This document shows, one piece after another, positions 7,001-40,327 of a stretch of 64,000 bases of DNA (the first letter of the stretch is position 1; the number at the start of each line of letters is the position of its first letter). Origin of the DNA: Candidatus Doudnabacteria bacterium (GTDB lineage Bacteria > Patescibacteriota > Doudnabacteria > UBA920 > 2-01-FULL-46-14); NCBI GenBank assembly GCA_041497195.1, contig JBGQGB010000003.1, positions 20,260 to 84,259 of the forward strand. The letters run 5' to 3'. The notes under the pieces are model-generated. The model made no database searches. It was not told the DNA's origin and was given only the letters and a program-made list of their open reading frames with translations. The position numbers and the translations under genes are program-made.

Positions 7001-7934
7001 GCAACATATTGATGAGCATCCACTCGGGTCGCATCCCGCCTTTAAGCAGAGATTTGGACAATTTCAAGCGCTTGATCGTTTTCCGGCGGGCCGCTCCTTC
7101 GGCAGTGATGAGTTCTTGCTCCAATTCCCCAACCAGTTTTTCCAGGTCAACAGCTTTGACGATCTGCCAGATGGCTTCCGCACCAATGCTGGCCTTGAAT
7201 ACCGGGCCGTATTTCAGAGATAAATCCCGGTATTCCAGCTCGGAGATGACTTGCATCTTTTTGATGCTTTTGAGCTCGGAGCGGGCCAAATCGCGGATTT
7301 TTTCCAAACCCGCAATTTCGTGCTGCATGTTTTCCTTGAGGTTATTGACTTCGGTCTCTACCTTGGCCTCGAAGACTTCGCGATCCTGACCATCTTGAGC
7401 TTTGGCCGTTTTGGCCTTGCCTAAAAGTTTTTCAAAGCGGACTTCGATTTCTTTCTTTTTGATCTTGAACTCCTTTTCAATCTGGGCCAAAGTTTCCGCG
7501 CGGGCGTCTTCTTTTACGTCCGTAATAATGTAAGAAGCAAAATAAACGACTTTTTCCATCTCCTGCACGGAGAGATTCAAAATCAAACCCAAACGGGAAG
7601 GAACACCGCGTAAAAACCAAATGTGCGCCACCGGCACGGCCAATTTGATATGACCCATGCGCTCGCGCCGAACCTGCGCGCGCGTTACTTCGACGCCGCA
7701 CTTGTCGCAAATAATCCCTTTGTAACGAATCCGTTTGTATTTGCCGCAATAACATTCCCAGTCTTTCACGGGTCCAAAAATTTTCTCATCAAACAGCCCG
7801 TCTTTTTCCGGGCGCTGGGTCCGATAATTGATAGTCTCCGGCTTGGTAACCTCGCCATAAGACCATTCCGAAATCAGCTCCGGGGAGGCGAGCTTGACTT
7901 GGACGGCTTTGAATTCCGAAGTTTTTTGAAACAT
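4041..7934 (-). CDS. rpoC: DNA-directed RNA polymerase subunit beta'
   Basis: 1297 aa. [14 protein letters not shown] catalytic motif, zinc-binding cysteines ([18 protein letters not shown]). Confidence 0.97.
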
Positions 7935-7943
7935 AAATTTAGC

Positions 7944-10900
7944 TTAGGCTTCTCTAATTTCCCGGGTTCGTTTTTCCTTTATGGTTTCCCGCTCCGACAG
8001 AGTAACGAGCTCTCTGACCTCCCCCTCTTCCGAACCGATGACTTCTTCCCCGATCAAATTCACATCCAGACACAAGGATTGCAGTTCTTTGACCAACACC
8101 CGAAAAGATTCCGGCACGTTCGGGGTCTTGATCGGCTCTCCTTTCACAATTGATTCATAGGTTTTGGACCGTCCCACGACGTCATCTGATTTGATCGTCA
8201 GCATTTCTTGCAAAGTGTGCGCCGCCCCATAACCTTCCAGGGCCCAGACTTCCATTTCCCCGAACCGCTGGCCGCCGAATTGGGCTTTGCCACCGAGGGG
8301 CTGCTGGGTGATCAAAGAGTAGGGCCCGGTCGAGCGAGCATGCATTTTATCGTCAACCAAATGATGAAGCTTCATCATATAGATGTAACCGACCGTGACT
8401 TTGCCATCGAAAGATTTGCCGGCCTTGCCGTCGTAAAGCATCACTTTCCCGTCTTCCGGATAGCCGCCTTTTTTCAATTCCTGCTTAATAATTTCTTCGG
8501 TCACCCCGTCGAGAACCGGGCTGGCGACTTTGTAGCCGAGTTTGTGCGCGGCCAGGCCCAAATGGGTTTCCAGAATTTGGCCCAAATTCATACGGGAGGC
8601 CACGCCCAAAGGATTGAGAATAATATCCACCGGCGTCCCGTCCTCCATGAAAGGCATGTCTTCTATTGGGACGATCCTGGAAATGACACCTTTGTTCCCG
8701 TGCCGGCCGGCCATTTTGTCTCCTACGGAAATTTTCCGAACCACGGCCACTGAAACTTGGATGGAGCGAATCACGCCAGAAGGCAATTTGTCGCCCTTGT
8801 CTCGGGAAAATTCGCGAATATTCACGACTTTCCCGTATTCGCCGTGCGGCAGACTCAGGGACGTATCTTTCACGTCACGGGCTTTTTCCCCGAAAATTAC
8901 GCGTAACAATTTCTCTTCCGCGGTCAGATCGGTTTCGCCTTTCGGGGTAATTTTGCCGACCAGGATATCGCCGGCTTTCACCTGGGCGCCGATGCGGACC
9001 ACTCCAGTTTCGTCCAAATCCTTGAGTTTTTCCTCGCCGACATTCGGAATGTCCCGGGTCACGATCTCAGGCCCCAGCTTGGTGTCTCGCACGTCCACCT
9101 TGAAATCTTCAATGTGGATAGAACTGAACCGGTCGTCTTGTACCAGGCGGGAAGAAATAATCACCGCATCCTCGTAATTGTATCCACTCCATGACATGAA
9201 CGCGACCAACACGTTCTGGCCCAAAGCCAGCTCTCCCTGCTCAGTCGCCGGTCCGTCAGCCAGGGCCTGCCCGCGCAAAACTTTTTCCTCGCGGCGGACG
9301 ATCGGCTTTTGATTGATGCTGGTGGACGTATTGGAGCGTAAAAACTTTTTCAGGAAATATTCGCGTTTGGTGCCCTCGTCGTCGGTCACCACAATTTTTT
9401 CCCCGGTCACGGAAGTGACGGTGCCGGACGCCTCACAAAGCACGATCTGCCCGGAATCAAACGCGGCTTTTTCCTCAACACCGGTGCCCACGATTGGGGA
9501 TTGCGGCCGGATGCAAGGGACAGCCTGGCGCTGCATGTTGGAGCCCATCAAAGCGCGGTTGGCGTCATCATGCTCCAGAAAAGGAATCAGGGACGTGGTA
9601 ATCGACACAATTTGTTTGGGCGAAACATCCATATAATCAATATCCGCAGTGGAAGCGATGGACGGTTCGCTGTGAACCCGCACTGGGACCCGGTCTTTGA
9701 CGAAATATCCCTGCGCGTCGATCTCGGTATTCGCCTGGGCGATGATGTATTGTCCCTCTTCGTGCGCATCCAGATAATCAATCTGGTCGGTGATGTGGCG
9801 CCGCCCATCGGCTTCTTTGGCCACTTTTCGGTAGGGGGTTTCAATAAAACCAAATTCGTTCACGCTCGCGTAGGAAGCCAAGTGGGCCACCAGACCGATA
9901 TTCGGGCCCTCCGGCGTGGTAATCGGGCACAGCCGGCCATAGTGGGAGCGGTGCACATCGCGAACCTCGAAGCCAGCGCGCTCGCGGGACAAGCCCCCCG
10001 GTCCCATGGCCGAGAGCCGCCGCTTGTGTTCGAGCTCGGCCAAAGGATTGGTCTGATCCATGAATTGCGAAAGCTGGGACGAGGAAAAAAACTCTTGCAT
10101 CACCGCCACAATCGGGCGGACATGAATGAGCTGCGCCGGCATGACTGTCTCCAGATCAGCCAGGCTCATCCGGTCTTTGGCGATGCGGCTCATGCGCGTG
10201 AGCCCCACGCGGAATTTGGTCTGAATGAGTTCCCCCACCGAGCGCACCCGCCGATTGGCCAAATGGTCGATGTCGTCCGGCGGCTCTTGCGAATTGTTCA
10301 GGGACACAATTTCCCGAATAACCCCGATTAAATCATCTTTGGTCAAAATCCGATCCTGCCTGTCCTTGATGCGCAACCGCTGGTTGAATTTGTAGCGCCC
10401 CACTTCCGAGAGATCATATCGGTCAAAATTGAAAAACATCGCTTCGATCAGCGAGCGGGCGTTGTCAACCGTTGCCAAATCACCCGGACGGATTCTCTTA
10501 TAAACTTCCTTAAATCCTCCGTCGGAATTTTTGGAAGAATCTTTTTCCAGAGTATTCTGGATGTATTTCAAATCAGGATTGGTATCAACGTCGGCAAAAG
10601 CCGCCAAAATTTCCTCATCCGTGGACAAACCAAACACTCTCATCAGCGCCGTCACCGGGATGCGGCGTTTTCTATCAATTTTCACGCCAATCACGCCATT
10701 GAGATCAGTATCAAACTCCAGCCAGGCCCCACGATTGGGAATAATTTTGCCGCCGTAGTAGTTACGGCCTCTGGCGTAAGTAGCACTGAAGAAAGCACCT
10801 GGCGATTTGATGAGCTGGGACACGACCACGCGTTCGACGCCATTGATCACGAATGTCCCCCGGTTGGTCATCAATGGAAAATCGCCCAGATACACGTCCT

Positions 10901-11535: not shown

Positions 11536-11814
11536 TTATTTCAGTTTGGTTGATTTCTGCCAGCGTTTCAACACGTAAATCTGCTGCCACCAATATTGTC
11601 CTTGCCACAGTCCAAAACCTGCTCCGGCAATCAAAAGGATGATGCTGAAAATACTGTGGAGGGCAAACCATTGCTGCCAAGTCAGGCCAAAACCGTATCG
11701 CGCAAAATCCGCGGTCAAAAGCTGAATATAGGAAATCTCAATCATCCTGTGAATCAAAAACTGCAGAAGAATCTCTAGTGTAGTAAAGGCCACAATGTAA
11801 ATAAACTTTTTCAT
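11536..11814 (-). CDS. small predicted membrane protein (2 TM helices), hypothetical
   Basis: 92 aa with two hydrophobic segments. Overlaps the stop of the upstream dehydrogenase gene by 4 bp, implying co-transcription. Confidence 0.4.
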   Translation of the reverse strand: MKKFIYIVAFTTLEILLQFLIHRMIEISYIQLLTADFARYGFGLTWQQWFALHSIFSIILLIAGAGFGLWQGQYWWQQIYVLKRWQKSTKLK

Positions 11815-13364
11815 TTAGTAGGAAAGCGAATCGGCACATTCACGCTTGCGTCATTTTCCGGCTTTCCAGACGGGTTGTCTTTTTGCAGAATCAAAGTACC
11901 GGAGCCGCTCAGAGGAGGGGTAAAATCCAATTTTGCGGTAAATGGGACAAAATTGTCAGTCATCCAGTCGCCTTGGGCTGTCGCTATAGCATGAGCGAGC
12001 TCATGTCCTTGTTCATCCAGAAGCTTTATCGGAAAACTGCCTTCAAAAAACCAGCTGCCGCGCGCCTCCCCTGCCACAGTCAAGGGGCTTTGGACCACGT
12101 CCTGCGGCTGCGGTTGTTTGACGTGCACAAACTGTGCTGCCTCACCTTGATCATAGGTCACGCGGTAGATGACGCCGATCTTGTCGTCGGAAATATACAT
12201 GATCCCGCCCGGTTGGGTGATGATATCGACTGGCCGGCCCAGTGCACCGTCTTTGGTCAACCAGCCGGTAATAAAATCCTCAGTACCCAAATAATTTCCT
12301 TTCGCGTCGAGCTTGATGCGGATGATTTTGTAGCCGGTCGGCGTAGTTCGATTCCACGAGCCGTGATAAGCCACCAACAAATTGCCCTGGTACTCCTGCG
12401 GCCACCCCTGCTGGGGCACAAACGCTAGCCCCAAGGGGGCAGAGTGGGCTGGCAAATCTATATGCGACGGCTCTTTGCCATTGCACGGGTCCTGGATGTA
12501 AACGTTTTTGTCGAAATTGGTATCGTGGATGTTGTGGCCATAGCAAATCGGCCAGCCGTAATTACTCCCGACCTTCAAAATATTGATTTCATCCGGCGGC
12601 AAATCGTCTCCTAGATAATCCCGGCCCATCTCTGTCCCCCACATCCTTCCATCCGCCAGGCTCCAGGTAAAAAACACGGAGTTCCGAAGCCCTCCGGCGT
12701 ATTGCCGAAAATCACTGCCGTCTTTGTTCATGGAATAAATAGCCGCTCGCCGCGAATCCGCCTCATTGCAGACATTACAAGACGAGCCGGTCGAGACATA
12801 CAAGCGCCCGTCCGGCCCGAACGCGATAGTACGGGTGAAATGACCCGCGCCACTGGGCAGGGTATCAATCGTCTTTTGATCAGAAGCGAGGGCAGTGCTC
12901 TGGTCATAGGCAAAGCTCAAGATTTGGTCTGAATCAGCCACATACAGCCGGCACTGCTGCACTGCCGCATTCCCCTGGCAATCAAAGGCCAGCCCGTGCG
13001 GATTTTTCAACCCCTGCACCACAGTGATACTGCGGTCAGCCTGGTGATTGACATCCTCATCAGGGAGCGCAACCACTTTGCCCTCGGAAGTGAGGCTGAC
13101 CACCAGCCGCCCGCTCGGATCAAAGGTCATCACCCGCGCATCCGGCAGATTTTTGGCAAAGATGGAGATAGAAAAACCAGGCGGCAGGGTCAGCGGCAAC
13201 CCGGTGCTGTTGAAAACAAGACTGGCCAAACTCTGCGGCGGCGGGCTGATCACTGGCTTGACCCCGCGGACAAAGCTGACCAATTTCGGCAAATAAACAA
13301 TCGTGCCCCAAACCGCGGCCACCACCACAGCACTGCCAAACACTACGATAATGTATTTTTTCAT
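11811..13364 (-). CDS. secreted PQQ-dependent sugar dehydrogenase-like beta-propeller (SGDH family) with C-terminal Gmad2 Ig-like domain
   Basis: 517 aa. N-terminal signal/TM segment (MKKYIIVVFGSAVVVAAVWG). The body resembles soluble glucose/sorbosone dehydrogenase. The C-terminal ~100 aa (GEARGSWFFEGSFPIKLLDEQG...ATAQGDWMTDNFVPF) resembles the Gmad2 domain. Confidence 0.6.
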   Translation of the reverse strand: MKKYIIVVFGSAVVVAAVWGTIVYLPKLVSFVRGVKPVISPPPQSLASLVFNSTGLPLTLPPGFSISIFAKNLPDARVMTFDPSGRLVVSLTSEGKVVALPDEDVNHQADRSITVVQGLKNPHGLAFDCQGNAAVQQCRLYVADSDQILSFAYDQSTALASDQKTIDTLPSGAGHFTRTIAFGPDGRLYVSTGSSCNVCNEADSRRAAIYSMNKDGSDFRQYAGGLRNSVFFTWSLADGRMWGTEMGRDYLGDDLPPDEINILKVGSNYGWPICYGHNIHDTNFDKNVYIQDPCNGKEPSHIDLPAHSAPLGLAFVPQQGWPQEYQGNLLVAYHGSWNRTTPTGYKIIRIKLDAKGNYLGTEDFITGWLTKDGALGRPVDIITQPGGIMYISDDKIGVIYRVTYDQGEAAQFVHVKQPQPQDVVQSPLTVAGEARGSWFFEGSFPIKLLDEQGHELAHAIATAQGDWMTDNFVPFTAKLDFTPPLSGSGTLILQKDNPSGKPENDASVNVPIRFPTK

Positions 13365-13365
13365 G

Positions 13366-13413
13366 CTACTTACTTACAACTTATTTACTTACTCACTTAT
13401 TCACTTGATCAGC
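13366..13413. repeat. copy A of phased-octamer intergenic repeat (minus sense AAGTGAAT AAGTGAGT AAGTAAAT AAGTTGTA AGTAAGTAGC-ATG)
   Basis: 38-nt stretch 13372-13409 is identical to 14764-14801. Overlaps the stop codon of pgi and ends 2 nt before the ATG of the dehydrogenase gene. Confidence 0.8.
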
Positions 13414-14366
13414 TTTTTGAATTCCTCCACCATCGGCACCTGTTCGGTCTCAAGGCCGTAGCCTTGGCCAGTATGAAACGCGGCCCAGTCTGCCAAAATG
13501 AGAGAGGAAAAAGTCTTTTCCATTCTGCTTGCCCCCGACAGTTCAATAATATCCACTGGCAAACCGCGGTCGCGGTAGAATTTTACCGTGATGGCAAAGC
13601 GTTTCTGAATTTGTGGGTGATCGTCGGAGTCTTTCAAGAAAATAAAATGGAATTTCTCTGAAAGAGCGCGGCTGGAATCTTTGACATCAAAACCTACCAT
13701 CTCATTGTGGTTGAGTTCGGGAAAAATATTATAAAATGCCGGGATTTTCCCAGTCTCATTAAATTTTATTTTCCAGTTACAAGCAATCGGCAAGTTTCGG
13801 TCGGAAGAATATATTATTGGAACCATATTTTTGATTTTTGCGGCCAAGTCTTTGCCGGCCTGCTCCAAATCCCCTGGCTGCAAAAGTTTTGCCATTGTCG
13901 CCGATTCTTTCAGAAGGATATTTTGCTTCATGAGCTTAAGTAATGCCTGCATGCCGAAGCCGAGCGCGGAACGAGGCTGGATACCGGTATCGGGTAATCG
14001 TACGTAAGGAAAGTTGTTTGCCTGGGCAATTTCCAAAATTTTTCCGCCAACCGCGACGCAGGCAACCGCAATTCCTCTATTTTGCGCTTCTTCGAGTGCG
14101 GAAATAGTCTCTTCCGTATTTCCCGAATATGAACTGGCAATTAGCAGAGTCTTCTTTTGATCCTTCTCGGCAACAGGAGGCACCCCGTAATCAGAGTGGA
14201 TCGTAATATCCAATTGAGGATTTAGGCTTTTGATAATATCAGCGGCCAGGTGGGAACCGCCCATTCCTGCCACAATAAATTTTCGATATTTGCGCAAAGG
14301 ACCATTCTCGATTTGTGGCCGATATTTGAATTGTTTGGCAAAATCTCGGATTGCTTGATCCATCAT
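13401..14366 (-). CDS. bifunctional phosphoglucose/phosphomannose isomerase (archaeal-type SIS-domain PGI/PMI)
   Basis: 321 aa. SIS-domain motifs (GMGGSHLAADI, SYSGNTEETI), typical length for this family. Confidence 0.75.
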   Translation of the reverse strand: MMDQAIRDFAKQFKYRPQIENGPLRKYRKFIVAGMGGSHLAADIIKSLNPQLDITIHSDYGVPPVAEKDQKKTLLIASSYSGNTEETISALEEAQNRGIAVACVAVGGKILEIAQANNFPYVRLPDTGIQPRSALGFGMQALLKLMKQNILLKESATMAKLLQPGDLEQAGKDLAAKIKNMVPIIYSSDRNLPIACNWKIKFNETGKIPAFYNIFPELNHNEMVGFDVKDSSRALSEKFHFIFLKDSDDHPQIQKRFAITVKFYRDRGLPVDIIELSGASRMEKTFSSLILADWAAFHTGQGYGLETEQVPMVEEFKKLIK

Positions 14367-14404
14367 GGGGGTAGTTGTAAGTAATTAAGTAGTAAGTGGG
14401 TAAA

Positions 14405-14761
14405 TTATTTTTGAATCTTCATCCACCCGTGAATGAGCTTGCCAACCTCATCGGCCAAGCTGCTTAGTTCACCATACCTCTGTTCGTTGATATATTTCAA
14501 ATCTCGCGACAATAAAAGTTCATACTTCAACTCTTCCAAAGAACCTTCAGCGATGTTGTAAAAATGCAGCGAATCATTTTTGGTTTTTCTCTTAAACCCT
14601 TCGGCGATATTTGCAGGGATGGAAACGCTAGAGCGACGAATTTGACTAGTCAGACCGAAAATTTCGGATTTGGGAAAAGTTTCGGTGATTTCGTAAATGC
14701 CTAGAGTTAGTTCATGAGCTTTCTGCCAAGCGATTATCTCTCGAAAAGTTTTGATCAGCAT
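14405..14761 (-). CDS. four-helix-bundle protein (TIGR02436, '23S rRNA intervening-sequence protein' family)
   Basis: About 118 aa. Motifs ...IPANIAEGF...EGSLEEL... are diagnostic of this family. Likely start is the ATG at 14759-14761. Confidence 0.75.
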   Translation of the reverse strand: MLIKTFREIIAWQKAHELTLGIYEITETFPKSEIFGLTSQIRRSSVSIPANIAEGFKRKTKNDSLHFYNIAEGSLEELKYELLLSRDLKYINEQRYGELSSLADEVGKLIHGWMKIQK

Positions 14762-14762
14762 C

Positions 14763-14802
14763 AACTTACAACTTATTTACTTACTCACTTATTCACTTGA
14801 TG
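14763..14802. repeat. copy B of phased-octamer intergenic repeat
   Basis: 14764-14801 is identical to 13372-13409. Overlaps the transaldolase stop codon and abuts the start of the four-helix-bundle gene. Confidence 0.8.
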
Positions 14803-15641
14803 AGCGCATTCCAATCCTGGGAAAATTTTTCGATTCCCTTCTCGGTCAACTGGTGGATGAGGTCAAACTTGGTCCAATTTTCATTGAGATCCAAAGTTTC
14901 ATAGGGGATGGCTTTGAGGCCATCTGGCCCATATTTGAAACCCATTGTGGGAATTTCGAAACCGGCCTCGACCCATTCTTTGATGGTCTTGAGAGGGGCT
15001 GTGATGATGTCTGAGCCCAAAGCGAGAGCGTAGAGGAAATGATTGAGATTTCTGACACTGGCAGTGAGGACCGCGACATGCCCATCGCCCTGTTTGTACA
15101 TGGCTAATATATTCTTTACCGCATCCATCCCATTCTGCCCGATATCATCCAGCCGGCCAACAAAGGGCGACACATACACCTGGCCTTTTACGGCTCCTCT
15201 GGTGGCTGCATACACTGCCGCGGCCTGCGCTTGGGAAAAACACAAAGTCATATTGACCCTCATCCCTTCTTTGACTGCAACCTCGGCAGCCTTGAGGCCA
15301 GCAGTGGTAGTCGGAAATTTGATATGCGCATTGGGAATCCATTCGAAAAATTCCAAGCCCTGGCCGAGCATTGCTTCAGTCGTGGTTTTGTCGTCCGCGT
15401 AGACTTCTATGGAGACCGAGCCCTCGGGAATGAGAGCGGACACCTCTCCCACTACATTGCGGTAAAACTCAAACACCTCGGTCTGCGAAAACTTTTTGCC
15501 CTTAGTCTGGGGATTTTTCGCAATCAGCGACGGATTGGTAGTCTGGCCATCGAGAAAACCCAGAAGCTTGATAGCTTCTCTGGTCTCATCCGGATCGCCA
15601 CTATCCAGGAATATTCGTGTTTTTAAATTATTAGGTCGCAT
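14793..15641 (-). CDS. tal: transaldolase
   Basis: 282 aa. FLDSGDPDE...GQTTNPSLI motifs of the transaldolase / fructose-6-phosphate aldolase family. Confidence 0.85.
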   Translation of the reverse strand: MRPNNLKTRIFLDSGDPDETREAIKLLGFLDGQTTNPSLIAKNPQTKGKKFSQTEVFEFYRNVVGEVSALIPEGSVSIEVYADDKTTTEAMLGQGLEFFEWIPNAHIKFPTTTAGLKAAEVAVKEGMRVNMTLCFSQAQAAAVYAATRGAVKGQVYVSPFVGRLDDIGQNGMDAVKNILAMYKQGDGHVAVLTASVRNLNHFLYALALGSDIITAPLKTIKEWVEAGFEIPTMGFKYGPDGLKAIPYETLDLNENWTKFDLIHQLTEKGIEKFSQDWNALIK

Positions 15642-15675
15642 ATGGTCCTGTTAAAGAAGACACTCATTAAGAATA

Positions 15676-15704
15676 CCAAAAAATCGCCCCTTCGGCGATT
15701 TTTG
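15676..15704. terminator. rho-independent terminator downstream of the VRR-NUC/HNH operon (minus strand); bidirectional-looking
   Basis: Hairpin AATCGCC-CCTTC-GGCGATT with an A-run on the 5' side and a T-run on the 3' side. Confidence 0.5.
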
Positions 15705-15740
15705 TGTGGGTTTCGTCGTGAAGGATTCTACATAAACCAT

Positions 15741-16259
15741 TTAAGAAATATCCCATTCGACCAGCAAAAAATTGTCTGGACCCAATCCGACCTCCAAACA
15801 GGCTTCTAGCCAAATAAACTGGCTATCTCTAATACTATCCTTATTCTTCCGCTTGCACTCGACAAATAAAAAATTGTCCCCTTTCCAAAGGAATACATCC
15901 CAGCATCCTTTGAAATCAGTCCGAGCGGTGATTGTCTTAAAAAACTTTGCTGGTATTTCCGGAAGCTCGTGATTTTCCTTGGCCCCCTCTGGCATCTTAG
16001 TGCGGAAGCACTTGCGATAACTGTCTACCCACACACCATCCCATCCCTCTTTTTTTAGAGTATTGAGGACCACCAGCTCCGCAAAAAGCGGGCGACCGTC
16101 ATATTCTAAAATATGCTTGTTACCATAGCTGTCTTTTACAGCATCGCCTTTCCATAAAGAAAACAGGACTTCGGCCTTTGGAATTACAACAACCTTTCCT
16201 GAGGGCAAAACAAATGTTTCCGAGGTTTTTGGTTTCCCACTTGTTAGCGATAATACCAA
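15741..16259 (-). CDS. PD-(D/E)xK nuclease, VRR-NUC-like domain protein
   Basis: 172 aa. C-terminal GCWDVFLWKGDNFLFVECKRKN...QFIWLEA fits the VRR-NUC pattern (G.PD....fvE.K....Q..w). The N-terminal ~110 aa domain is of unknown function. Local GC is lower than the flanks. Confidence 0.55.
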   Translation of the reverse strand: MVLSLTSGKPKTSETFVLPSGKVVVIPKAEVLFSLWKGDAVKDSYGNKHILEYDGRPLFAELVVLNTLKKEGWDGVWVDSYRKCFRTKMPEGAKENHELPEIPAKFFKTITARTDFKGCWDVFLWKGDNFLFVECKRKNKDSIRDSQFIWLEACLEVGLGPDNFLLVEWDIS

Positions 16260-16636
16260 TTGGGTAAATTGCTCTTTCTCCGGCTTTTATTTTGTTCCAA
16301 CCTCGCCTGGTAAAGTTTCCTTATTTCTCGTCCCAAGGAAGTCCGGCGTTCGGATTCGCGCAAGGCGATAACTCCGAACTGGAAAAGTTTTCTTATCTTT
16401 CTGCCTTTAAGATTCCACTTTAAACGATTACATATCAAGCAGATTGGGAGAAAGTTTATTACTTTGTCTTTTCCTCCACGTGATACTGAAACTACATGGT
16501 CAACGTGCCATCGCCCTTTTTCAGCTCTAACGGCATCAAAGACGAGAACTCGCCCGCAAACATGGCATCTCCCGCCGGTTTTTGACCATACTTTCTGTTT
16601 TATTGGAACGGTAATTGTTTTTCTTCTTTTGGACAT
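16244..16636 (-). CDS. HNH endonuclease
   Basis: 130 aa. CHVCG...HVDHVVSVSRGG...N...CLICN motif arrangement of HNH (zinc-binding cysteine pairs plus H-N-(H/N)), with a basic C-terminal tail. Overlaps the downstream nuclease gene by 16 bp. Confidence 0.75.
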   Translation of the reverse strand: MSKRRKTITVPIKQKVWSKTGGRCHVCGRVLVFDAVRAEKGRWHVDHVVSVSRGGKDKVINFLPICLICNRLKWNLKGRKIRKLFQFGVIALRESERRTSLGREIRKLYQARLEQNKSRRKSNLPNWYYR

Positions 16637-16745
16637 CTTTGATAAAGAATCCTATTTTAGCCGACACATGCTTTAGTCAATATAGGATATGCCTTGGCGG
16701 GGTCCCTTGTGGAACGATGTTTGAACGGCTTTTTGTGTTAAAAAA

Positions 16746-17666
16746 TTATTTTGCTTCCTGGAAAACTTTATAAAAATGCTGATAGTTTTTGGCAATCTCC
16801 GCAGTTGCTTGCTCGTCAGTTGATTTACCATCTCGCAATGCTACCAACGGCTCCCAAAAAATCGTGCGGCCGATCGCAAACCCGACCAGGCCTTTCGCTT
16901 TGGCAGCTGCGCGCAGCCATACTTCCACTTGGGCGGCGTCTGCCCCGCGGCCGAGGATCACCGCGGAAACATTGTCCCGGCCACCGGTCCTGGCTTGCGC
17001 CACTACCTCTTCATAATGCTTCGTGCTCTCCAGCCCCTCAATCTTCCAGATGTCCGGCTCGACACTATCGGCCTGAAGCTCGGAAATCATTTTGACCATG
17101 AGTTGGGGGCGGACTTCCAAATCATATTTCTTCGCATCCCCTCCAGCTGCCTGGAGTTGTTCAGGTGTCGCTGGAATGAGCGGTTCGATCAAAAATTTGT
17201 AGCCATGCTCATGACAATAATTGCTGGGGATCTTCAGTCGCCCCCGTTGCCGAGCGTTCATGCCCTGATCTGCTTCGGGATTGTAGCGGATCAGGGCTTT
17301 GACAAAAGTCGGGTGGTAGCGCTCAATATGTACTGCAAACTCGTCCCCGTACTCAAAATCAAACTCATCCTGGCCGCTTTTTTCCGAAGACATGCAAAAA
17401 ATATAGCCCTCCTCACGAGCTTCCCGCAGAATGGCATCCCCAAACTGTTCATCAATGAGGATCGCCGCCTCGCCTTTGGGAATACTAGCAGCCACCGCTT
17501 GTTTGAAACCGGCAAAAATCACTTGCTTGAACTGCGAAATTTGTTCGGTCTGTGCAATAGTCGGCTGGCCGCTGATGCCAAACATTTTTTTCATGAACGA
17601 ACCGCGGTGATCAAAAGCGAGGATGAAAAGAGGCTTTGTGTAGCCAGGCTTGGAATATTCAATCAT
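16746..17666 (-). CDS. LacD/DhnA-like class I aldolase (tagatose/fructose-bisphosphate aldolase family)
   Basis: 306 aa. N-terminal LAFDHRGS motif resembles the LacD LAFDQRGA block. Sits in a glycolysis/pentose-phosphate gene context. Confidence 0.55.
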   Translation of the reverse strand: MIEYSKPGYTKPLFILAFDHRGSFMKKMFGISGQPTIAQTEQISQFKQVIFAGFKQAVAASIPKGEAAILIDEQFGDAILREAREEGYIFCMSSEKSGQDEFDFEYGDEFAVHIERYHPTFVKALIRYNPEADQGMNARQRGRLKIPSNYCHEHGYKFLIEPLIPATPEQLQAAGGDAKKYDLEVRPQLMVKMISELQADSVEPDIWKIEGLESTKHYEEVVAQARTGGRDNVSAVILGRGADAAQVEVWLRAAAKAKGLVGFAIGRTIFWEPLVALRDGKSTDEQATAEIAKNYQHFYKVFQEAK

Positions 17667-17687: not shown

Positions 17688-17730
17688 CGCTTACAACTTA
17701 TTTACTTACTCACTTACTACTAATGACTAC
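17688..17730. repeat. copy C of phased-octamer intergenic repeat (26-nt core identical to copies A/B)
   Basis: 17691-17716 TTACAACTTATTTACTTACTCACTTA matches 13374-13399. Lies between the glpX stop and the aldolase start. Confidence 0.7.
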
Positions 17731-18704
17731 TTCTTACTGGTTTGATGATGATAGGTCGTAATGTAGCGCAGAGTCCCGGAACTGCCACGTAAGACCATCG
17801 AATGAGTAATGATATGTGCTTGCCCGCCCGAGACGGATCCTCCTCCGGAGGAAAATCTCACCCCTTGCAGGAGCGGCCCGTCGATCACACCTGTGGCAGT
17901 GAAAGTGAGCTGTTTGCCGTGAGCCAGATCCTCGGCCCGAAAAACTTTCTTGAGGTTTTTCGTACCACTCTGGCGGATCGCTTTCTCGTCGTCTTTGCTG
18001 CGCGGAGCAAATTGGCAGAGAATCTGCCCGCCCAGGAGTTTCACCGGCGCTGCAGCGAGGACTGCCTCAGTACTGCCGCCGATGCCCATCAAGAGATCAA
18101 TCCCGGAATCAGGCAAACAGGTGGCAATGGCAGCGGCCACGTCGCCGTCAGTGATGAGTCGCACCCGCGCTCCGGCCTGACGAATCTTCTGAATCAGGCC
18201 TTTGTGCCGCTCTCTGTCCAAAACCACCACTACTATATCTTTGACTGGCTTACCGAGCGCCCTAGCTACATTATATATATTAACCTTGACTGGCGCTTCC
18301 AGCTTGATCACTTTGGCAGCCCGCGGTCCGGCCGCGATTTTGTTCATATAGGTATCCGGGGCAGAGAGCAGGCTGCCGCGCGGCCCGGCCACTATCACTG
18401 ACAAAGCATTGTAGCGGCCATATGCCACACTATCAGTGGCCTCGAGCGGATCAACAGCCAGATCCATAGTGGGGCCGTTTCCTTTCCCGACTTTTTCGCC
18501 AGTATATAGCTCCGGCGCTTCATCTTTCGCTCCCTCGCCAATCACCACTCGGCCGGAAAACTCGATTTGGTTGAAGCGCGCCCGCATCTCATCCACTGCC
18601 GCCCCGTCGGCTTTGTGTTTGTCCCCGCGGCCAACCCATCTGGCGGCCGCGATTGCGGCCGCTTCGGTGACCCGGACAAATTCGAGAGCTAAATTGCGAT
18701 CCAT
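17727..18704 (-). CDS. glpX: class II fructose-1,6-bisphosphatase
   Basis: 325 aa with conserved GlpX blocks throughout. Confidence 0.88.
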   Translation of the reverse strand: MDRNLALEFVRVTEAAAIAAARWVGRGDKHKADGAAVDEMRARFNQIEFSGRVVIGEGAKDEAPELYTGEKVGKGNGPTMDLAVDPLEATDSVAYGRYNALSVIVAGPRGSLLSAPDTYMNKIAAGPRAAKVIKLEAPVKVNIYNVARALGKPVKDIVVVVLDRERHKGLIQKIRQAGARVRLITDGDVAAAIATCLPDSGIDLLMGIGGSTEAVLAAAPVKLLGGQILCQFAPRSKDDEKAIRQSGTKNLKKVFRAEDLAHGKQLTFTATGVIDGPLLQGVRFSSGGGSVSGGQAHIITHSMVLRGSSGTLRYITTYHHQTSKK

Positions 18705-18705
18705 A

Positions 18706-19344
18706 TCATTTGGTTGCCATGACTATCCATCTATCATATCTCAAAAATTTTTCTATAGCGACTTTTCTATACGATTTGAAAAGACTCGCTAATTCTGCCC
18801 GCTTGTATAATGAATGAATCAGCCCTGTTTCGGGACCGCTGGTAGCTACGGTCGCCCCGTCGCGCAAATATTTCCACACTTCATCTGCTGACTTCCAGTC
18901 TTTACGGCTGACATAAAATGGAAAAGAAATAAAAATCTTCCCGCCGCTAATAAGGCTCGCGTAAATTCTATTTAATAGAGACTTGATTTTAGATTTCTCG
19001 CCATGGTGAATCGTATTTACCGAGTAGATAAAATCATAACGATTTTTTGGAACTCGATAGTTAAACATATTGGCTACCTGCAAATCAGCATCTTTACCTA
19101 AAATTTTTCGGGATAACTTGAATGCTGCCTTGCTATAGTCAATGCCAGCAGTTTCAAACCCTCGTGATTGCAGCCATTTTAAGTATCTCCCGTCCCCGAA
19201 ACCGATATCAAGTGTGCTGCGAAATTTGAAATCTGAATGTAGCACGAAACTTTTAAACAGTCGCGAAACTGGTCTGCTTAAGGTCGCGTACGCGGGACCT
19301 CCTGTTGAGTAGCGAGCATAAATTTTTTCCCATTCTTTACTCAT
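18706..19344 (-). CDS. class I SAM-dependent methyltransferase
   Basis: 212 aa. LDIGFGDGRY motif I. Overlaps the tkt stop by 8 bp. Confidence 0.7.
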   Translation of the reverse strand: MSKEWEKIYARYSTGGPAYATLSRPVSRLFKSFVLHSDFKFRSTLDIGFGDGRYLKWLQSRGFETAGIDYSKAAFKLSRKILGKDADLQVANMFNYRVPKNRYDFIYSVNTIHHGEKSKIKSLLNRIYASLISGGKIFISFPFYVSRKDWKSADEVWKYLRDGATVATSGPETGLIHSLYKRAELASLFKSYRKVAIEKFLRYDRWIVMATK

Positions 19345-21196
19345 GCAAAAACTTTTTTACGACTCTGATTATGGCTCCCCGCGAAATCTCCTCATACTCC
19401 AAAAGTTCTGCGGGTTTGCCTGAGCGCGGCATTTTGCGCACTGCTAAACTGAATACTTGATACTTACCACTTAATGCTGACCTGACCGCTTCTCCGATGC
19501 CGCCTTCGGGATAATGATCCTCGACTGTAATAATACTGCCGGTGTCTTTGGCTGCTTGTAGCAAAGTCTTGCGATCAATTGGCTTGATACTATAGAGATC
19601 AATCACCCGGATGAAGATGCCTTGTTTTTTCAGCTCCTCATACGCAGCCAACGCTTCGTGCAAGGTAACTCCGGCCCCGACTACTGTCACGACGTCTTTG
19701 CGGCTTTGCCTGAGAACTTTACTGCCACCAATCGGGAACTCCTGCCGCGACGAGTACAAAACCGGAGTCGTCATTCTGGTAGTGCGGATATAGACGATGC
19801 CTTTGCGTTTGGCGGCTGCTTCCACGAGCTTTTCCGTGGAAACTGCGTCTGACGGATACAAAACCACACCCCCCTGGATGGTGCGAAACATAGCCAAATC
19901 CTCCAGCCCCATTTGCGAAGCGCCATCCTCTCCTATAGACACGCCAGCGTGGGAGCCCACGAATTTGATATTCGCTCCTGAATACTGGCTCATCCGGATC
20001 TGGTCATAGCCTCTGGCAAAAAAGGCGGCAAAGGTCGAGACAAACGGGATATTGCCGCGGCGCGACAGGCCGAGAGCGCTACCTACCATATTCTGCTCGG
20101 CAATGTACATTTCAAAAAACCTGTCCGGGTATTTCGCTTTGAAAATTTCCGCATAAGTCGAGTTGCTCACCTCGGCATCCAGGACCACCATGTTGGGAAA
20201 CTTGGGAAAAATCCGTACCAAGGCATTGCCGTAGGCTTTGCGGGTGGCGACCCCGTCTCCGAGTTTGTACTGAATCTTCGCAGACGAATAATGCGTCGGC
20301 GCCTTGTCCGCCTTCGTCCGCCCAAGGCGGACTACAGCGGACTGCGGCCTGGCTAATTCCCCTCGAAAAGACTTGTTAACTTTCCCCAGTTCGCGAAGCG
20401 CTTGAATTAATTCTTCTTTGCTCAAGGCCTTGCCATGCCAGTTGTCTTTGTTTTCGATAAACGAGATGCCTTTGCCTTTGAGTGTTTTGGCGATAATCAT
20501 CACCGGCCGGTCTTTGACTCTCGCAGCTTGCTCGTATGCTTTCAAAATCTCCTTGAAATTGTGGCCGTTGATGACCATCGTCTTCCAGCCAAACGCAGCA
20601 ATGCGTTTTTGGTAAGCCTGCAAATCATGCCCATACATAGTGGGGCCGCGCTGGCCCAACCGATTGACATCCAAAATTCCTACGAGATTGTCGAGTTTGT
20701 AGTGTGCTGCCAGCTGCATGGCTTCCCACTGCGACCCTTCGGCCATTTCGCTGTCACCGAGTAACACATAAGTCCGATACGGAAGCTTGTCGAGATATTT
20801 GGCATTGAGCGCCATACCCACCCCAATAGAAAGGCCCTGGCCGAGCGAACCAGTAGCCGCCTCGGTATAGGGAAACCTCATGGTCGGGTGTCCCTCGAGT
20901 TGGCTGCCGAACTGCCGGAGGGTGAGCATTTCTTTTTCACTGACTTTGCCTGCAGCTGCGTAAATAGAATAGAAAAGCGGGGACGCGTGGCCTTTGGAAA
21001 AAATCAGGCGGTCGTTGTTAGGGTGATTGGGGCGCTGTAAATCAAAACGAAACACCTTGCCAAATAGCAGGGCAGTCATCAAATCAGCAGCAGATAGGGA
21101 CGAGGTCGGGTGCCCGGAACCGGCTCGGGTCGTAGAAATCAGACTGTAGTAGCGGATGAGTCTGGCAAGTTCTTGGAGTTTTTTGAGATCGGCCAT
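19337..21196 (-). CDS. tkt: transketolase
   Basis: 619 aa. Thiamine-diphosphate-binding N-terminal domain (GSGHPTSSLS), pyrimidine-binding domain and C-terminal domain. Confidence 0.93.
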   Translation of the reverse strand: MADLKKLQELARLIRYYSLISTTRAGSGHPTSSLSAADLMTALLFGKVFRFDLQRPNHPNNDRLIFSKGHASPLFYSIYAAAGKVSEKEMLTLRQFGSQLEGHPTMRFPYTEAATGSLGQGLSIGVGMALNAKYLDKLPYRTYVLLGDSEMAEGSQWEAMQLAAHYKLDNLVGILDVNRLGQRGPTMYGHDLQAYQKRIAAFGWKTMVINGHNFKEILKAYEQAARVKDRPVMIIAKTLKGKGISFIENKDNWHGKALSKEELIQALRELGKVNKSFRGELARPQSAVVRLGRTKADKAPTHYSSAKIQYKLGDGVATRKAYGNALVRIFPKFPNMVVLDAEVSNSTYAEIFKAKYPDRFFEMYIAEQNMVGSALGLSRRGNIPFVSTFAAFFARGYDQIRMSQYSGANIKFVGSHAGVSIGEDGASQMGLEDLAMFRTIQGGVVLYPSDAVSTEKLVEAAAKRKGIVYIRTTRMTTPVLYSSRQEFPIGGSKVLRQSRKDVVTVVGAGVTLHEALAAYEELKKQGIFIRVIDLYSIKPIDRKTLLQAAKDTGSIITVEDHYPEGGIGEAVRSALSGKYQVFSLAVRKMPRSGKPAELLEYEEISRGAIIRVVKKFLHE

Positions 21197-38042: not shown

Positions 38043-38285
38043 TTAGATTTGTTCGACCGGATCCGAACCCCCGGCAGAAAAAGGATTACATCTCAAAATT
38101 CTCCAGACTGCTTTTAACGACCCTTTCGCTGCCCCGTGCTTTAGAAGCGACAATCGAGCATACTCGGAACAAGACGGATAAAAACGGCAATATCCGTAAG
38201 GGTAGCGTTGTTTCCCCCGAGGGCTATGATCTGGGGAAAATAACTTTTGATAGAAATCGATGAGTCCGAGTAAAGTCCTAGTCAT
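38043..38285 (-). CDS. yidD: membrane protein insertion efficiency factor YidD
   Basis: 80 aa. Motif CRFYPSCSEYA. Confidence 0.85.
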   Translation of the reverse strand: MTRTLLGLIDFYQKLFSPDHSPRGKQRYPYGYCRFYPSCSEYARLSLLKHGAAKGSLKAVWRILRCNPFSAGGSDPVEQI

Positions 38286-38631
38286 TTTTTTTCATAAGTT
38301 TTGCCTGAGTTAGAAGCCAGGTCAATTCTTGGTGCACTTCCTGGGTTGTAAGGCTAGGTAATTGTGTTCTGGCTTGAACGATGACCTCAAACCCTGGAAA
38401 AAAAGCGGGAAACAGAGCAGCGACACGAGCACGCAAAATCCGTTTCAAACGGTTGCGAGCGACAATTTTTCCTACTTGCTTTTTGGAAATAACAAAACCA
38501 AAACGGGTTGGGTTTTGGTCTTGGGCTTTTTTATAGAAAAGCCGGAAGTGGGAAGAAAAGGCTTGTTTGCCAAATTTGTAAATCCGGGCGTATTCCCGGG
38601 CTTTGGTCACACGCAGGTTTCGCCGTAACAT
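38278..38631 (-). CDS. rnpA: ribonuclease P protein component
   Basis: 117 aa with basic RnpA motifs. Positioned between rpmH and yidD. Confidence 0.85.
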   Translation of the reverse strand: MLRRNLRVTKAREYARIYKFGKQAFSSHFRLFYKKAQDQNPTRFGFVISKKQVGKIVARNRLKRILRARVAALFPAFFPGFEVIVQARTQLPSLTTQEVHQELTWLLTQAKLMKKND

Positions 38632-38636
38632 GTTTT

Positions 38637-38771
38637 CTAGATGGTTAAACGCACCCGGCCCTTTTGCCGCCTCGCTTTTAATACACGTCTTCCGGTACGC
38701 GTTTTCATACGTTTCCTAAACCCATGCCTGCGTGCCCGGTGTTTTCTTTTAGGTTGGTAAGTCCTTTTCAT
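38637..38771 (-). CDS. rpmH: 50S ribosomal protein L34
   Basis: Not in the ORF track because it is under 60 aa. Minus-strand translation is [44 protein letters not shown] (44 aa), the classic L34 sequence. Confidence 0.85.
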
Positions 38772-38962
38772 CTGGTTTAGTATATCTTTTAAAGGTCCTT
38801 TGAGTCAATCATAAAATTCATTCACCGGTTTTGCACATTCTATCCACAGACAATATTGATTTTCGCTAAAACTTGGGCAAAATTTGTGATTTTACATGTT
38901 GATAACCTTTCTGTTAGAATAGCTTGCGGGTGTAATAAAACCTTTCGAAAAGGGGACTCAAA
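38772..38962. promoter_or_regulatory. candidate oriC segment / dnaA promoter region with DnaA-box-like 9-mers
   Basis: Lies between divergent rpmH and dnaA. CTATCCACA at 38839-38847 and TGTTGATAA at 38897-38905 each match the TTATCCACA consensus at 8 of 9 positions. AT-rich tracts. Confidence 0.45.
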
Positions 38963-40327
38963 GTGGACTCTATCAAACAAATTTGGCAGGCAGTATTAGG
39001 AAATTTAGAAATTTCCTTGTCCAAGGCTAGTTTCACAACATGGTTTAAAAACACCACGATCCTAGATCAAAGCAACGATAAAATTATCATTGGGGTCCCC
39101 AACGCTTTCACCAAGGAATGGCTAATGAACAAATTTCACCAGGAAATTCTCCGCGCCATTCGCTCAGTTAACCCAGAAGTCAAGCAAATTGAATATCAAA
39201 TCACCACAGCTTATGCGCCGCGGCTCGCGGAACTGGCAAAAACAAACTCTGTTGCACCGGCAGTTGAACGCTCAGCCCCACTTTCCCGCGCTTCCACCCT
39301 AAACTCTGGTTTAAATCCAAAATATACTTTCCAAACTTTCATCGTCGGCAGCAACAATGAACTAGCGGCGGCGGCCGCCTCTGCTGTCGCCAAAAATCCA
39401 GGGAAATCATACAACCCCCTGTTTATCTATGGGGGGGTTGGCTTGGGGAAGACTCACCTCATGCAGGCCATTGGGAACGAATTTGTGTTCAACAATCCGG
39501 AAAAACGGGTTTTGTACGTAACCTCAGAAAAATTTACGAACGAATTCATTCAGGCGGTACGTTACGACAAAGGTGAAAATTTTACAAATTTATACCGGAA
39601 TGTAGATATTCTGCTCATTGACGACATCCAATTTTTGGCGGGTAAAGAGGGTACGCAAGAAGAATTTTTCCACACCTTTAACAGCTTGCATCAATCAAAC
39701 AAACAAATCGTTCTATCCTCGGACCGCTTGCCCAAAGATATTCCTGCCATTGAGGAACGACTAGTCTCAAGATTCGAGTGGGGAATGATCGCCGACGTCC
39801 AAGCGCCAGATTTTGAAACTCGTCTGGCAATTCTGCGTTCGAAAGCAAAAGAACGGGAATATCAAATTGACCCTGCGGTCCTCGATTATATTGCCCAAAC
39901 CGTGGAATCAAACATCCGGGAACTGGAAGGCTCGCTTAACCGACTAATGGTTTTCTGCCAACTGAACAATACCCCACCGACGCTGGACAAGGTCAAAAAC
40001 GCTTTATCTAATATAATCTTTTCCCCTAAAAAACGGGTGGTTTCGGCAAAAAAAATTATGGAGGTGGTGGCGGATTTTTACAATGTCTCTCTGGACGATC
40101 TCATCAGACAATCTAGAAAAAAAGAATACGTCACCCCCCGTCAGATCGCCATGTATATTATCCGCAAAGAACTGGAAACCAGCCTCCCGATGATTGGGGA
40201 AATTTTCGGCGGGCGGGACCATACAACCGTCATACACGCGGTCGACAAGATTCAAAGGTTAACAAAAGACAAAGAGTCTCTCAAGCAGGAAATTAGCCTA
40301 ATTAGCAACCGTATTTATATGGATTAA
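38963..40327 (+). CDS. dnaA: chromosomal replication initiator DnaA
   Basis: 454 aa. AAA+ Walker A GGVGLGKTHL and C-terminal DNA-binding domain. GTG start. Confidence 0.96.
   Translation: MDSIKQIWQAVLGNLEISLSKASFTTWFKNTTILDQSNDKIIIGVPNAFTKEWLMNKFHQEILRAIRSVNPEVKQIEYQITTAYAPRLAELAKTNSVAPAVERSAPLSRASTLNSGLNPKYTFQTFIVGSNNELAAAAASAVAKNPGKSYNPLFIYGGVGLGKTHLMQAIGNEFVFNNPEKRVLYVTSEKFTNEFIQAVRYDKGENFTNLYRNVDILLIDDIQFLAGKEGTQEEFFHTFNSLHQSNKQIVLSSDRLPKDIPAIEERLVSRFEWGMIADVQAPDFETRLAILRSKAKEREYQIDPAVLDYIAQTVESNIRELEGSLNRLMVFCQLNNTPPTLDKVKNALSNIIFSPKKRVVSAKKIMEVVADFYNVSLDDLIRQSRKKEYVTPRQIAMYIIRKELETSLPMIGEIFGGRDHTTVIHAVDKIQRLTKDKESLKQEISLISNRIYMD

Follow-up and report, generated by a model that had tools for sequence, protein, structure and literature searches.

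Two small nuclease genes of foreign appearance in a variable gap of a Candidatus Doudnabacteria sugar-metabolism cluster

The locus and its genes

The sequence examined here is a 64,000-nucleotide (nt) stretch of a Candidatus Doudnabacteria genome (contig JBGQGB010000003.1), referred to below as the window. Between the aldolase and transaldolase (tal) genes of its tkt-glpX-aldolase-tal-pgi cluster lie two small open reading frames (ORFs), one for an HNH endonuclease of 130 amino acids (aa) and one for a 172-aa VRR-NUC-like protein, which are real genes of foreign appearance in a variable gap of a sugar-metabolism cluster. Both are on the minus strand, as is every gene between 11.8 and 21.2 kb, and they share 16 nt (16244-16259); spacers of 109 nt and 99 nt precede and follow the pair. 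Their coordinates, their overlap and their position between transaldolase and aldolase agree with an earlier reading of this DNA from its letters (the sequence-only reading), further claims of which are taken up below. Families were assigned to the window proteins with Pfam, and the features are as follows:

16244-16636, minus strand: gene for a free-standing HNH endonuclease (ββα-Me), 130 aa (Pfam HNH, PHROG, alignment, structure relative)
15741-16259, minus strand: gene for a predicted VRR-NUC family PD-(D/E)xK nuclease, 172 aa, TTG start (homologues, alignment, model)
15679-15703, minus strand: intrinsic-terminator-like hairpin (10 pairs, loop of 5) with T-rich tail
16654-16680, minus strand: candidate -35/-10 pair, TTGACT-15 nt-TAAAAT (read from the sequence; weak)
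16637-16745, minus strand: spacer of 109 nt from aldolase stop to HNH start, poor in guanine plus cytosine (GC, 0.394; composition, site scan)
16746-17666, minus strand: DUF2090/DeoC-type aldolase (Pfam, E 1.2e-33)
14793-15641, minus strand: transaldolase, tal (TAL_FSA, E 4.6e-49)
17727-18704, minus strand: glpX (Pfam)
18706-19344, minus strand: generic S-adenosylmethionine methyltransferase (Pfam)
19337-21196, minus strand: tkt (Pfam)
14405-14764, minus strand: 23S-rRNA-IVP/bAvd-like gene (Pfam)
13401-14366, minus strand: pgi (Pfam)
11811-13364, minus strand: glucose/sorbosone-dehydrogenase (GSDH)-like gene (Pfam)

The HNH endonuclease

The sequence-only reading had called the 130-aa protein an HNH endonuclease, and this identity holds. 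Pfam HNH (PF01844) is matched at E 7.9e-8, with 32.8 bits against a cut-off of 21.4, and PHROG 2118 (HNH endonuclease) at E 2.2e-17; the best solved relative is a Geobacter HNH endonuclease (4h9d, E 4e-4). The pattern CxxC...DH...N...CxxCN is invariant in nine homologues: across the alignment of 10 sequences, C24, H25, C27, D46, H47, N61, C69 and N70 do not vary and C66 is conserved in at least 90%, which comprises the zinc finger (CxxC...CxxC) and the catalytic D46-H47, N61 and N70. Because these motif residues and a basic C-terminal tail of ~55 residues are conserved across the homologues, the enzyme looks catalytically competent on sequence grounds.

Eight homologues show 54-75% identity, five of them 130-131 aa long and the rest 142-208 aa. 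An N6_N4 methylase adjoins in one context, with an integrase in the locus, and MazE in another, with type IV secretion system genes nearby. A single frameshifted HNH-VRR-NUC fusion gene was considered and rejected, given the five homologues of 130-131 aa and the shared ...YYR/YNR ending of all eight; homologues of the VRR-NUC-like protein, moreover, start at the same residues as the window protein.

No public same-strain contig that spans the intact HNH ORF (L105-L117) has it annotated as a gene; these contigs derive from NCBI GCA_041492065.1, two JGI metagenomes and several SRA assemblies, and their HNH DNA is 100% identical. An identical protein is nevertheless absent from a 5.8-billion-cluster database (best match 74%), and the protein is missing from a 15-billion-protein collection. 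The ORF has therefore consistently escaped the gene callers.

The VRR-NUC-like protein

On its own, the 172-aa protein scores 19.4 bits against Pfam VRR_NUC (PF08774; E 0.0011), below the cut-off of 23.8. A first search yielded 30 full-length homologues, 21 of which match VRR_NUC (best 8.2e-8). In their alignment W77, V78, G118, D121, W125, F132, E134, K136, D141 and Q147 are invariant and E61 is conserved in at least 90%; these residues match the E...D...ExK...Q series and thus carry the signature of VRR-NUC/PD-(D/E)xK nucleases. A profile of the family reaches the C-terminal VRR-NUC domain of Pseudomonas FAN1 at E 0.26-0.28, with catalytic residues in register. Judged by its sequence, the protein belongs to the VRR-NUC / PD-(D/E)xK nucleases, as the sequence-only reading had proposed, with E61, D121, E134, K136 and Q147 as putative catalytic residues.

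A confident AlphaFold2 model built on the alignment (predicted local distance difference test [pLDDT] 91.7, predicted template-modelling score [pTM] 0.88) contains the αβββαβ(α) restriction-endonuclease-like core, with VRR-NUC domains as the closest structures; the top 20 Foldseek matches are all FAN1. The predicted elements are β12-17, β23-33, β51-53, β56-58, α60-70, β74-79 and β84-86 in the N-terminal part and α101-114, β122-126, β129-137, α145-156 and β164-171 in the C-terminal part. The nuclease fold begins at about residue 59 and spans 59-172 in the model: the helix 60-70, which bears E61, and the strand 74-79 are its α1/β1, and the helix 101-114 is inserted between β1 and β2 (about 87-120). 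The sequence-only reading had put a separate, unrecognised domain of ~110 residues at the N-terminus and proposed structure prediction as a check. The model disposes of that domain, most of which is VRR-NUC fold plus the β1-β2 insertion; only residues 1-58 are extra, as an extension of four β-strands.

The homologues share a conserved S-E-x-F-x-L-P-S-G motif located upstream of an alternative TTG at codon 18, which favours the 172-aa start and hence the 16-nt overlap with the HNH gene. Other searches with this protein gave little: its single sequence found no match among solved structures, NCBIfam gave no match, PHROGs reached E 0.23 at best, and tblastn against INPHARED (50,697 sequenced phage records) found no match. 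The model retrieved weak VRR-NUC/Holliday-junction resolvase matches (E >= 0.013) from the viral folds of BFVD.

Synteny and composition

Outside the same strain, the next aldolase is 70% identical, and no closer relative was found. The sequence-only reading had suggested comparing neighbourhoods in related genomes, and the nuclease pair proves not to be conserved at this locus, being absent from the three closest relatives: (i) in L120 the order is glpX-aldolase-79 nt-pgi, with the slot empty; (ii) in L123 it is aldolase-91-aa ORF-tal-pgi; and (iii) in L019, a Saccharibacteria metagenome-assembled genome, the aldolase is followed by a 232-aa ORF, a 96-aa ORF, a methyltransferase, a 5' fragment of tal, hicB/hicA and tal-IVP. 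The host looks like a bacterium of the Patescibacteria (CPR), and its gene order is like that of Saccharibacteria.

The composition of the cassette (15642-16745) is likewise atypical, as claimed earlier. Its GC content, 0.425, compares with a mean of 0.495 for the window (z -2.1; within the lowest 0.84% of stretches of 1104 nt) and with 0.497 and 0.512 for the flanks; its trinucleotide distance has a z of 2.27. GC at third codon positions is 0.405 in the HNH gene and 0.451 in the VRR-NUC gene, against typically 0.5-0.65; by a score like the codon adaptation index (CAI), the two genes rank 2nd and 5th lowest among 53. Of the two lines of evidence for insertion, synteny is the stronger.

Transcription signals

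Between the pair and the transaldolase start codon, a hairpin (AAAAATCGCC-GAAGG-GGCGATTTTT) is followed by a T-run (15703-15679); the intergenic fold has a free energy of -27.1 kcal/mol (z -2.76 vs shuffles), in line with the terminator placed at 15676-15704 by the sequence-only reading. The promoter that it assigned to the pair fares less well. The sequence TTGACT-15 nt-TAAAAT is present (16680-16654), 17 nt upstream of the HNH ATG, but its status as a promoter is unproven: the 15-nt spacer is suboptimal, a consensus scan with spacers of 16-18 nt did not report the candidate, and the region shows no enrichment of promoter-like sites (7 vs 4.6 ± 2.5). A scan of the 16637-16745 spacer found no terminator-like site between the aldolase and HNH genes, making possible read-through from the aldolase into the pair as plausible as a dedicated promoter.

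Other features of the cluster

In L019, hicB/hicA is flanked by a direct duplication of ~108 nt (7387-7494, 8001-8108) corresponding to codons 1-36 of tal. Of the two copies, the upstream one is a dead fragment and the downstream one begins an intact tal. The arrangement has the look of a footprint left by an insertion into the 5' end of tal that regenerated the gene. Two relatives, L123 (2472-2747) and L019 (6366-6656), have a homologous small ORF of 91-96 aa, with the motif ...FTLEDIHE..., after the aldolase; the window has no counterpart.

The methyltransferase gene of the window (18706-19344, minus strand) has a GC content of 0.407 and the 4th-lowest codon score, overlaps tkt by 8 nt and is separated from glpX by 1 nt. 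It is absent from L019 and L120 and therefore represents a second accessory insertion in the tkt-pgi cluster. As a candidate cognate DNA methylase for the nuclease pair it was rejected, as it matches Methyltransf_11/23/25 and TehB and no DNA-methylase family. The four-helix-bundle IVP/bAvd-like gene (14405-14764, minus strand), between tal and pgi, has a GC content of 0.403; a counterpart with 72% identity occupies the same place in L019, and L120 and L123 have none.

An ACTTAC-rich repeat of 28-38 nt (core AGTAAGTAAATAAGTTGTAAG on the gene strand) occurs at 13372-13409, 14764-14801 and 17689-17716, directly upstream of three genes (GSDH-like, IVP and aldolase), and as an inverted partial copy (14373-14403) upstream of pgi. 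All four copies fall within the cluster (chance expectation 0); none precedes tal, the HNH gene or the VRR-NUC gene. A related ACTTAC-rich stretch lies ahead of pgi in L120. The repeat could be a cluster-specific operator or leader element.

Contexts of the VRR-NUC-like family

An exhaustive profile search returned 1191 representatives (clusters at 50% identity) at E <= 1e-3, 812 of them at <= 1e-10 and 235 at <= 1e-30. The best 150 of the 1191 are mostly 160-190 aa long and cover the whole profile, and D...ExK...Q is kept in 136 of 148 distant representatives; by sequence, the β-extension plus nuclease fold is the conserved unit of the family. Its members are almost always annotated "hypothetical protein" in the sources. 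The family is thus large and uncharacterised, and is found in mobile or defence-island contexts: (i) a tyrosine integrase and DUF488 adjoin the family gene in L003, and at another locus lie within ~1.5 kb of it, in an island with type I restriction-modification (R-M) and FokI-like genes; (ii) a Hymenobacter locus carries TraG-like, Fic and helicase genes; (iii) five Hymenobacter plasmids encode members, with DUF262, helicases and an HNH-motif protein at the two loci inspected; and (iv) on an IMG/VR contig, one member is next to a ParB-methylase. The 85 metagenomic loci gave 146 immediate neighbours, of which, classed by Pfam family, the commonest are N6_N4 DNA methylase (9), ParB_N (7), C5 methylase (3), NurA (3, with HerA), resolvase/recombinase and TraG-type proteins; DNA methylases account for 13 of the 146.

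Some arrangements recur. Around members in L024, L051, L057, L076, L080, L099, L102 and similar loci, a conserved gene of 351-361 aa starts 16 (or 13) nt before the VRR-NUC stop or 3-6 nt after it, and in most of these loci ParB_N and an N6_N4 DNA methylase lie upstream on the opposite strand. In L061, L065 and L081 a gap of 12 nt separates the member from a downstream gene for a NurA-like protein of 410 aa, behind which comes one for a HerA/DUF87-like ATPase of 545 aa, a trio that looks like a defence or DNA-end-processing module. In P0168 (707 aa) the VRR-NUC-like domain is fused to SIR2_2, which occurs in defence proteins such as ThsA. Further fusions are found in P0104/P0105/P0085, P0048/P0131/P0155/P0092 and P0078; the partners are an unannotated "WYAWQMLPGYGG..PY.SPI" domain on either side of the VRR-NUC-like domain, a Cys-rich C-terminal module (...H..DC.H...C..C) and a possible second PD-(D/E)xK-like module at the N-terminus.

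Linkage of the two nucleases

The sequence-only reading had suspected a novel system that couples two nuclease folds. The closest homologues speak otherwise: that of the VRR-NUC-like protein (67% identity, L016) has no HNH partner and unrelated genes upstream, and that of the HNH protein (74%, L013) has no VRR-NUC, its neighbour being an unrelated 168-aa gene. This upstream gene was tried as a hidden VRR-NUC and rejected, having no similarity and no Pfam match. Within the fetched flanks, a same-family HNH lies near the VRR-NUC gene in one of the 85 family loci: in L083 it stands directly upstream (33% identity), on the same strand and in the same order as in the window. The same order is seen in three of the 148 best representatives (P0039, P0076 and P0114), in which an HNH of another subtype is fused N-terminally to the VRR-NUC-like domain. 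Linkage of the two nucleases is thus recurrent but rare, and hints at a functional affinity without defining a conserved system.

Searches for a known defence system were similarly unproductive. PADLOC-DB v2 holds no match for the 172-aa protein; the HNH protein gives generic HNH-domain matches (REase_II at 2e-6, SAVED-HNH effectors and a weak mREase_IV), the partner genes of which are absent from the locus.

Origin and function of the pair

We consider it probable, with some reservation, that the pair occupies a variable slot of the tkt-glpX-aldolase-tal-pgi cluster as an accessory insertion specific to its lineage, made up of two small genes for nucleases of the type seen in mobile elements or defence islands. 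Both would have been acquired horizontally, possibly as cargo of the free-standing homing type, and would be co-transcribed and, through the 16-nt overlap, translationally coupled. The HNH zinc-finger endonuclease would nick or cut duplex DNA. In FAN1, a helical β1-β2 insertion blocks dimerisation and biases the enzyme towards 5' flaps (PMC4103454); as the predicted β1-β2 helix lies at the same topological place, we infer that the 172-aa protein would be a metal-dependent, structure-specific nuclease acting on branched DNA (flaps/junctions), as opposed to a sequence-specific restriction enzyme, and it may be monomeric. The targets of the pair would be foreign or recombining DNA, in which the HNH enzyme would make breaks and the VRR-NUC protein would process branched intermediates. 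The selfish or defence cargo of the sequence-only reading is thereby upheld in outline, by composition, by the variable slot and by the mobile and defence contexts of homologues; its novel two-fold system with an unknown domain is not established.

Several observations weigh against an insertion of this kind. The core genes yidC/yidD/rnpA are about as GC-poor as the cassette, and composition alone is therefore no proof of foreign origin; rnpA (minus strand) and dnaA (plus strand) diverge over a 331-nt spacer (38632-38962), with yidD/yidC beside rnpA, in a GC-poor region (38278-40327) that is probably the replication origin, so that low GC in this genome is not confined to foreign genes. No direct or inverted repeats or target duplication beyond chance flank the cassette, no integrase accompanies it, and no tRNA integration site lies within 7 kb; duplicated tal or aldolase fragments beside it do not exceed chance either, and an Rfam scan of 13-18 kb gave no match. 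All 15 fetched same-strain public contigs match the window at 100% identity across every overlap, and the cassette is present in 12 of the 12 that span the aldolase end of the slot; a search for an empty-site strain with the exact tal and aldolase proteins found the cassette in every contig that reaches the slot. With the nearest aldolases ~70% identical, neither the date nor the direction of a gain or loss can be established. Finally, HNH and VRR-NUC are seldom linked elsewhere, and the substrate preference proposed above rests on one AlphaFold model and the analogy with FAN1.

Two further readings grant the pair, or its family, a more definite role. It might be one functional two-nuclease unit, serving as a defence against phages or plasmids or as a homing cassette, in which the HNH enzyme makes the first break and the VRR-NUC protein, possibly in complex with it, recognises or processes the resulting branched or foreign DNA. 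The overlap within one transcription unit bounded by a terminator, the fusions to HNH domains of different subtypes, the like-ordered genes of L083, the SIR2_2 fusion and the defence-island neighbours of the family all point this way; we nevertheless think it unlikely, given that the closest homologues of both proteins are unpaired, that 84 of the 85 family loci lack a same-family HNH in their fetched flanks, that PADLOC has nothing for the 172-aa protein and only generic matches for the HNH, and that the cassette contains no sensor, immunity or methylase gene. In a broader and equally tentative form, the ~170-aa family would be an unrecognised stand-alone defence or conflict nuclease, repeatedly teamed with a second effector, and the window pair a minimal, nuclease-only immune or homing module. 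The second effectors, which we list with similar hesitation, would be HNH (by fusion or adjacency), SIR2 (by fusion), and NurA/HerA and DNA methylases (by adjacency). A methylase would then be needless, because one partner would read DNA structure and not sequence.

It is less probable still that the pair is all that survives of a decayed prophage, plasmid or integrative element and has no present role in the host, its HNH a packaging- or homing-type endonuclease and its VRR-NUC a replication-repair resolvase. The HNH protein does match phage HNH PHROGs (E 2e-17), solved solo VRR-Nuc proteins of phages and bacteria (αβββαβα) are dimeric Holliday-junction resolvases (Pennell et al., PMC4103454), and the family has its IMG/VR member beside a ParB-methylase and its integrase-adjacent ones. 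Yet both ORFs are intact with all catalytic residues, the pair is identical in all 15 fetched same-strain contigs, neither att-like repeats nor further genes of phages or plasmids lie nearby, and the phage records and viral folds gave no match and weak matches, respectively. To an R-M-like or toxin module, balanced by the methyltransferase at 18706-19344 or by an unrecognised immunity gene, we give very little credence. DNA methylases are the commonest neighbours of the family, the HNH protein has its weak REase_II and mREase_IV matches in PADLOC, and VRR-Nuc toxins exist in the form of type VI secretion system TseV effectors (PMC9635880); against this, two core genes separate the methyltransferase from the pair, the cassette has no ORF of the size of an immunity gene and encodes neither a PAAR nor a secretion domain, and no toxin-antitoxin signature flanks it.

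Comparison with known systems

If the accessory-insertion reading is correct, its value is modest: (i) it gives a name and a fold to a large family annotated "hypothetical protein" almost everywhere, the full 170-aa architecture of which would be nearer to FAN1 than the short phage resolvases are; (ii) it flags a real HNH gene missed by gene callers in every public contig of the organism; and (iii) it illustrates how small selfish or defence genes enter the compact operons of Patescibacteria at particular junctions, such as aldolase|tal in the window and the 5' end of tal, with hicBA inside, in L019. A new minimal module for defence or homing, built from nucleases alone, would be added only if the coupling of HNH and VRR-NUC proved functional.

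Free-standing HNH endonucleases of phages and mobile elements (T4 MobE-type; Geobacter 4h9d) are likewise small ORFs between conserved genes and of atypical composition, and the window HNH shares with them the intact ββα-Me and zinc-finger motif. It differs from phage homing HNH enzymes in its host, a bacterial chromosome; the concept of intergenic free-standing homing endonucleases comes from PMC2790892 and PMC2988022.

For the 172-aa protein, the archaeal Holliday-junction resolvase Hjc is a far weaker match than VRR-NUC/FAN1, and lacks the additional N-terminal and inserted elements of the window protein. Solo VRR-NUC proteins (PF08774; PDB 4qbl, 4qbn, 4qbo) are ~90-120 aa long and have neither an N-terminal extension nor a β1-β2 insertion, and the window protein's own score falls below the Pfam gathering cut-off for that family. 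The closest fold is FAN1's VRR-NUC domain (human, Pseudomonas; PDB 8s5a, 5y7g), at 16-18% identity. The β1-β2 insertion contains one predicted helix in the 172-aa protein and two in FAN1. The other domains of FAN1 are SAP, TPR and UBZ. FAN1 is a multidomain repair enzyme of 540-1000 aa, whereas the window protein would join a comparable nuclease fold to a 58-residue β extension within 172 aa.

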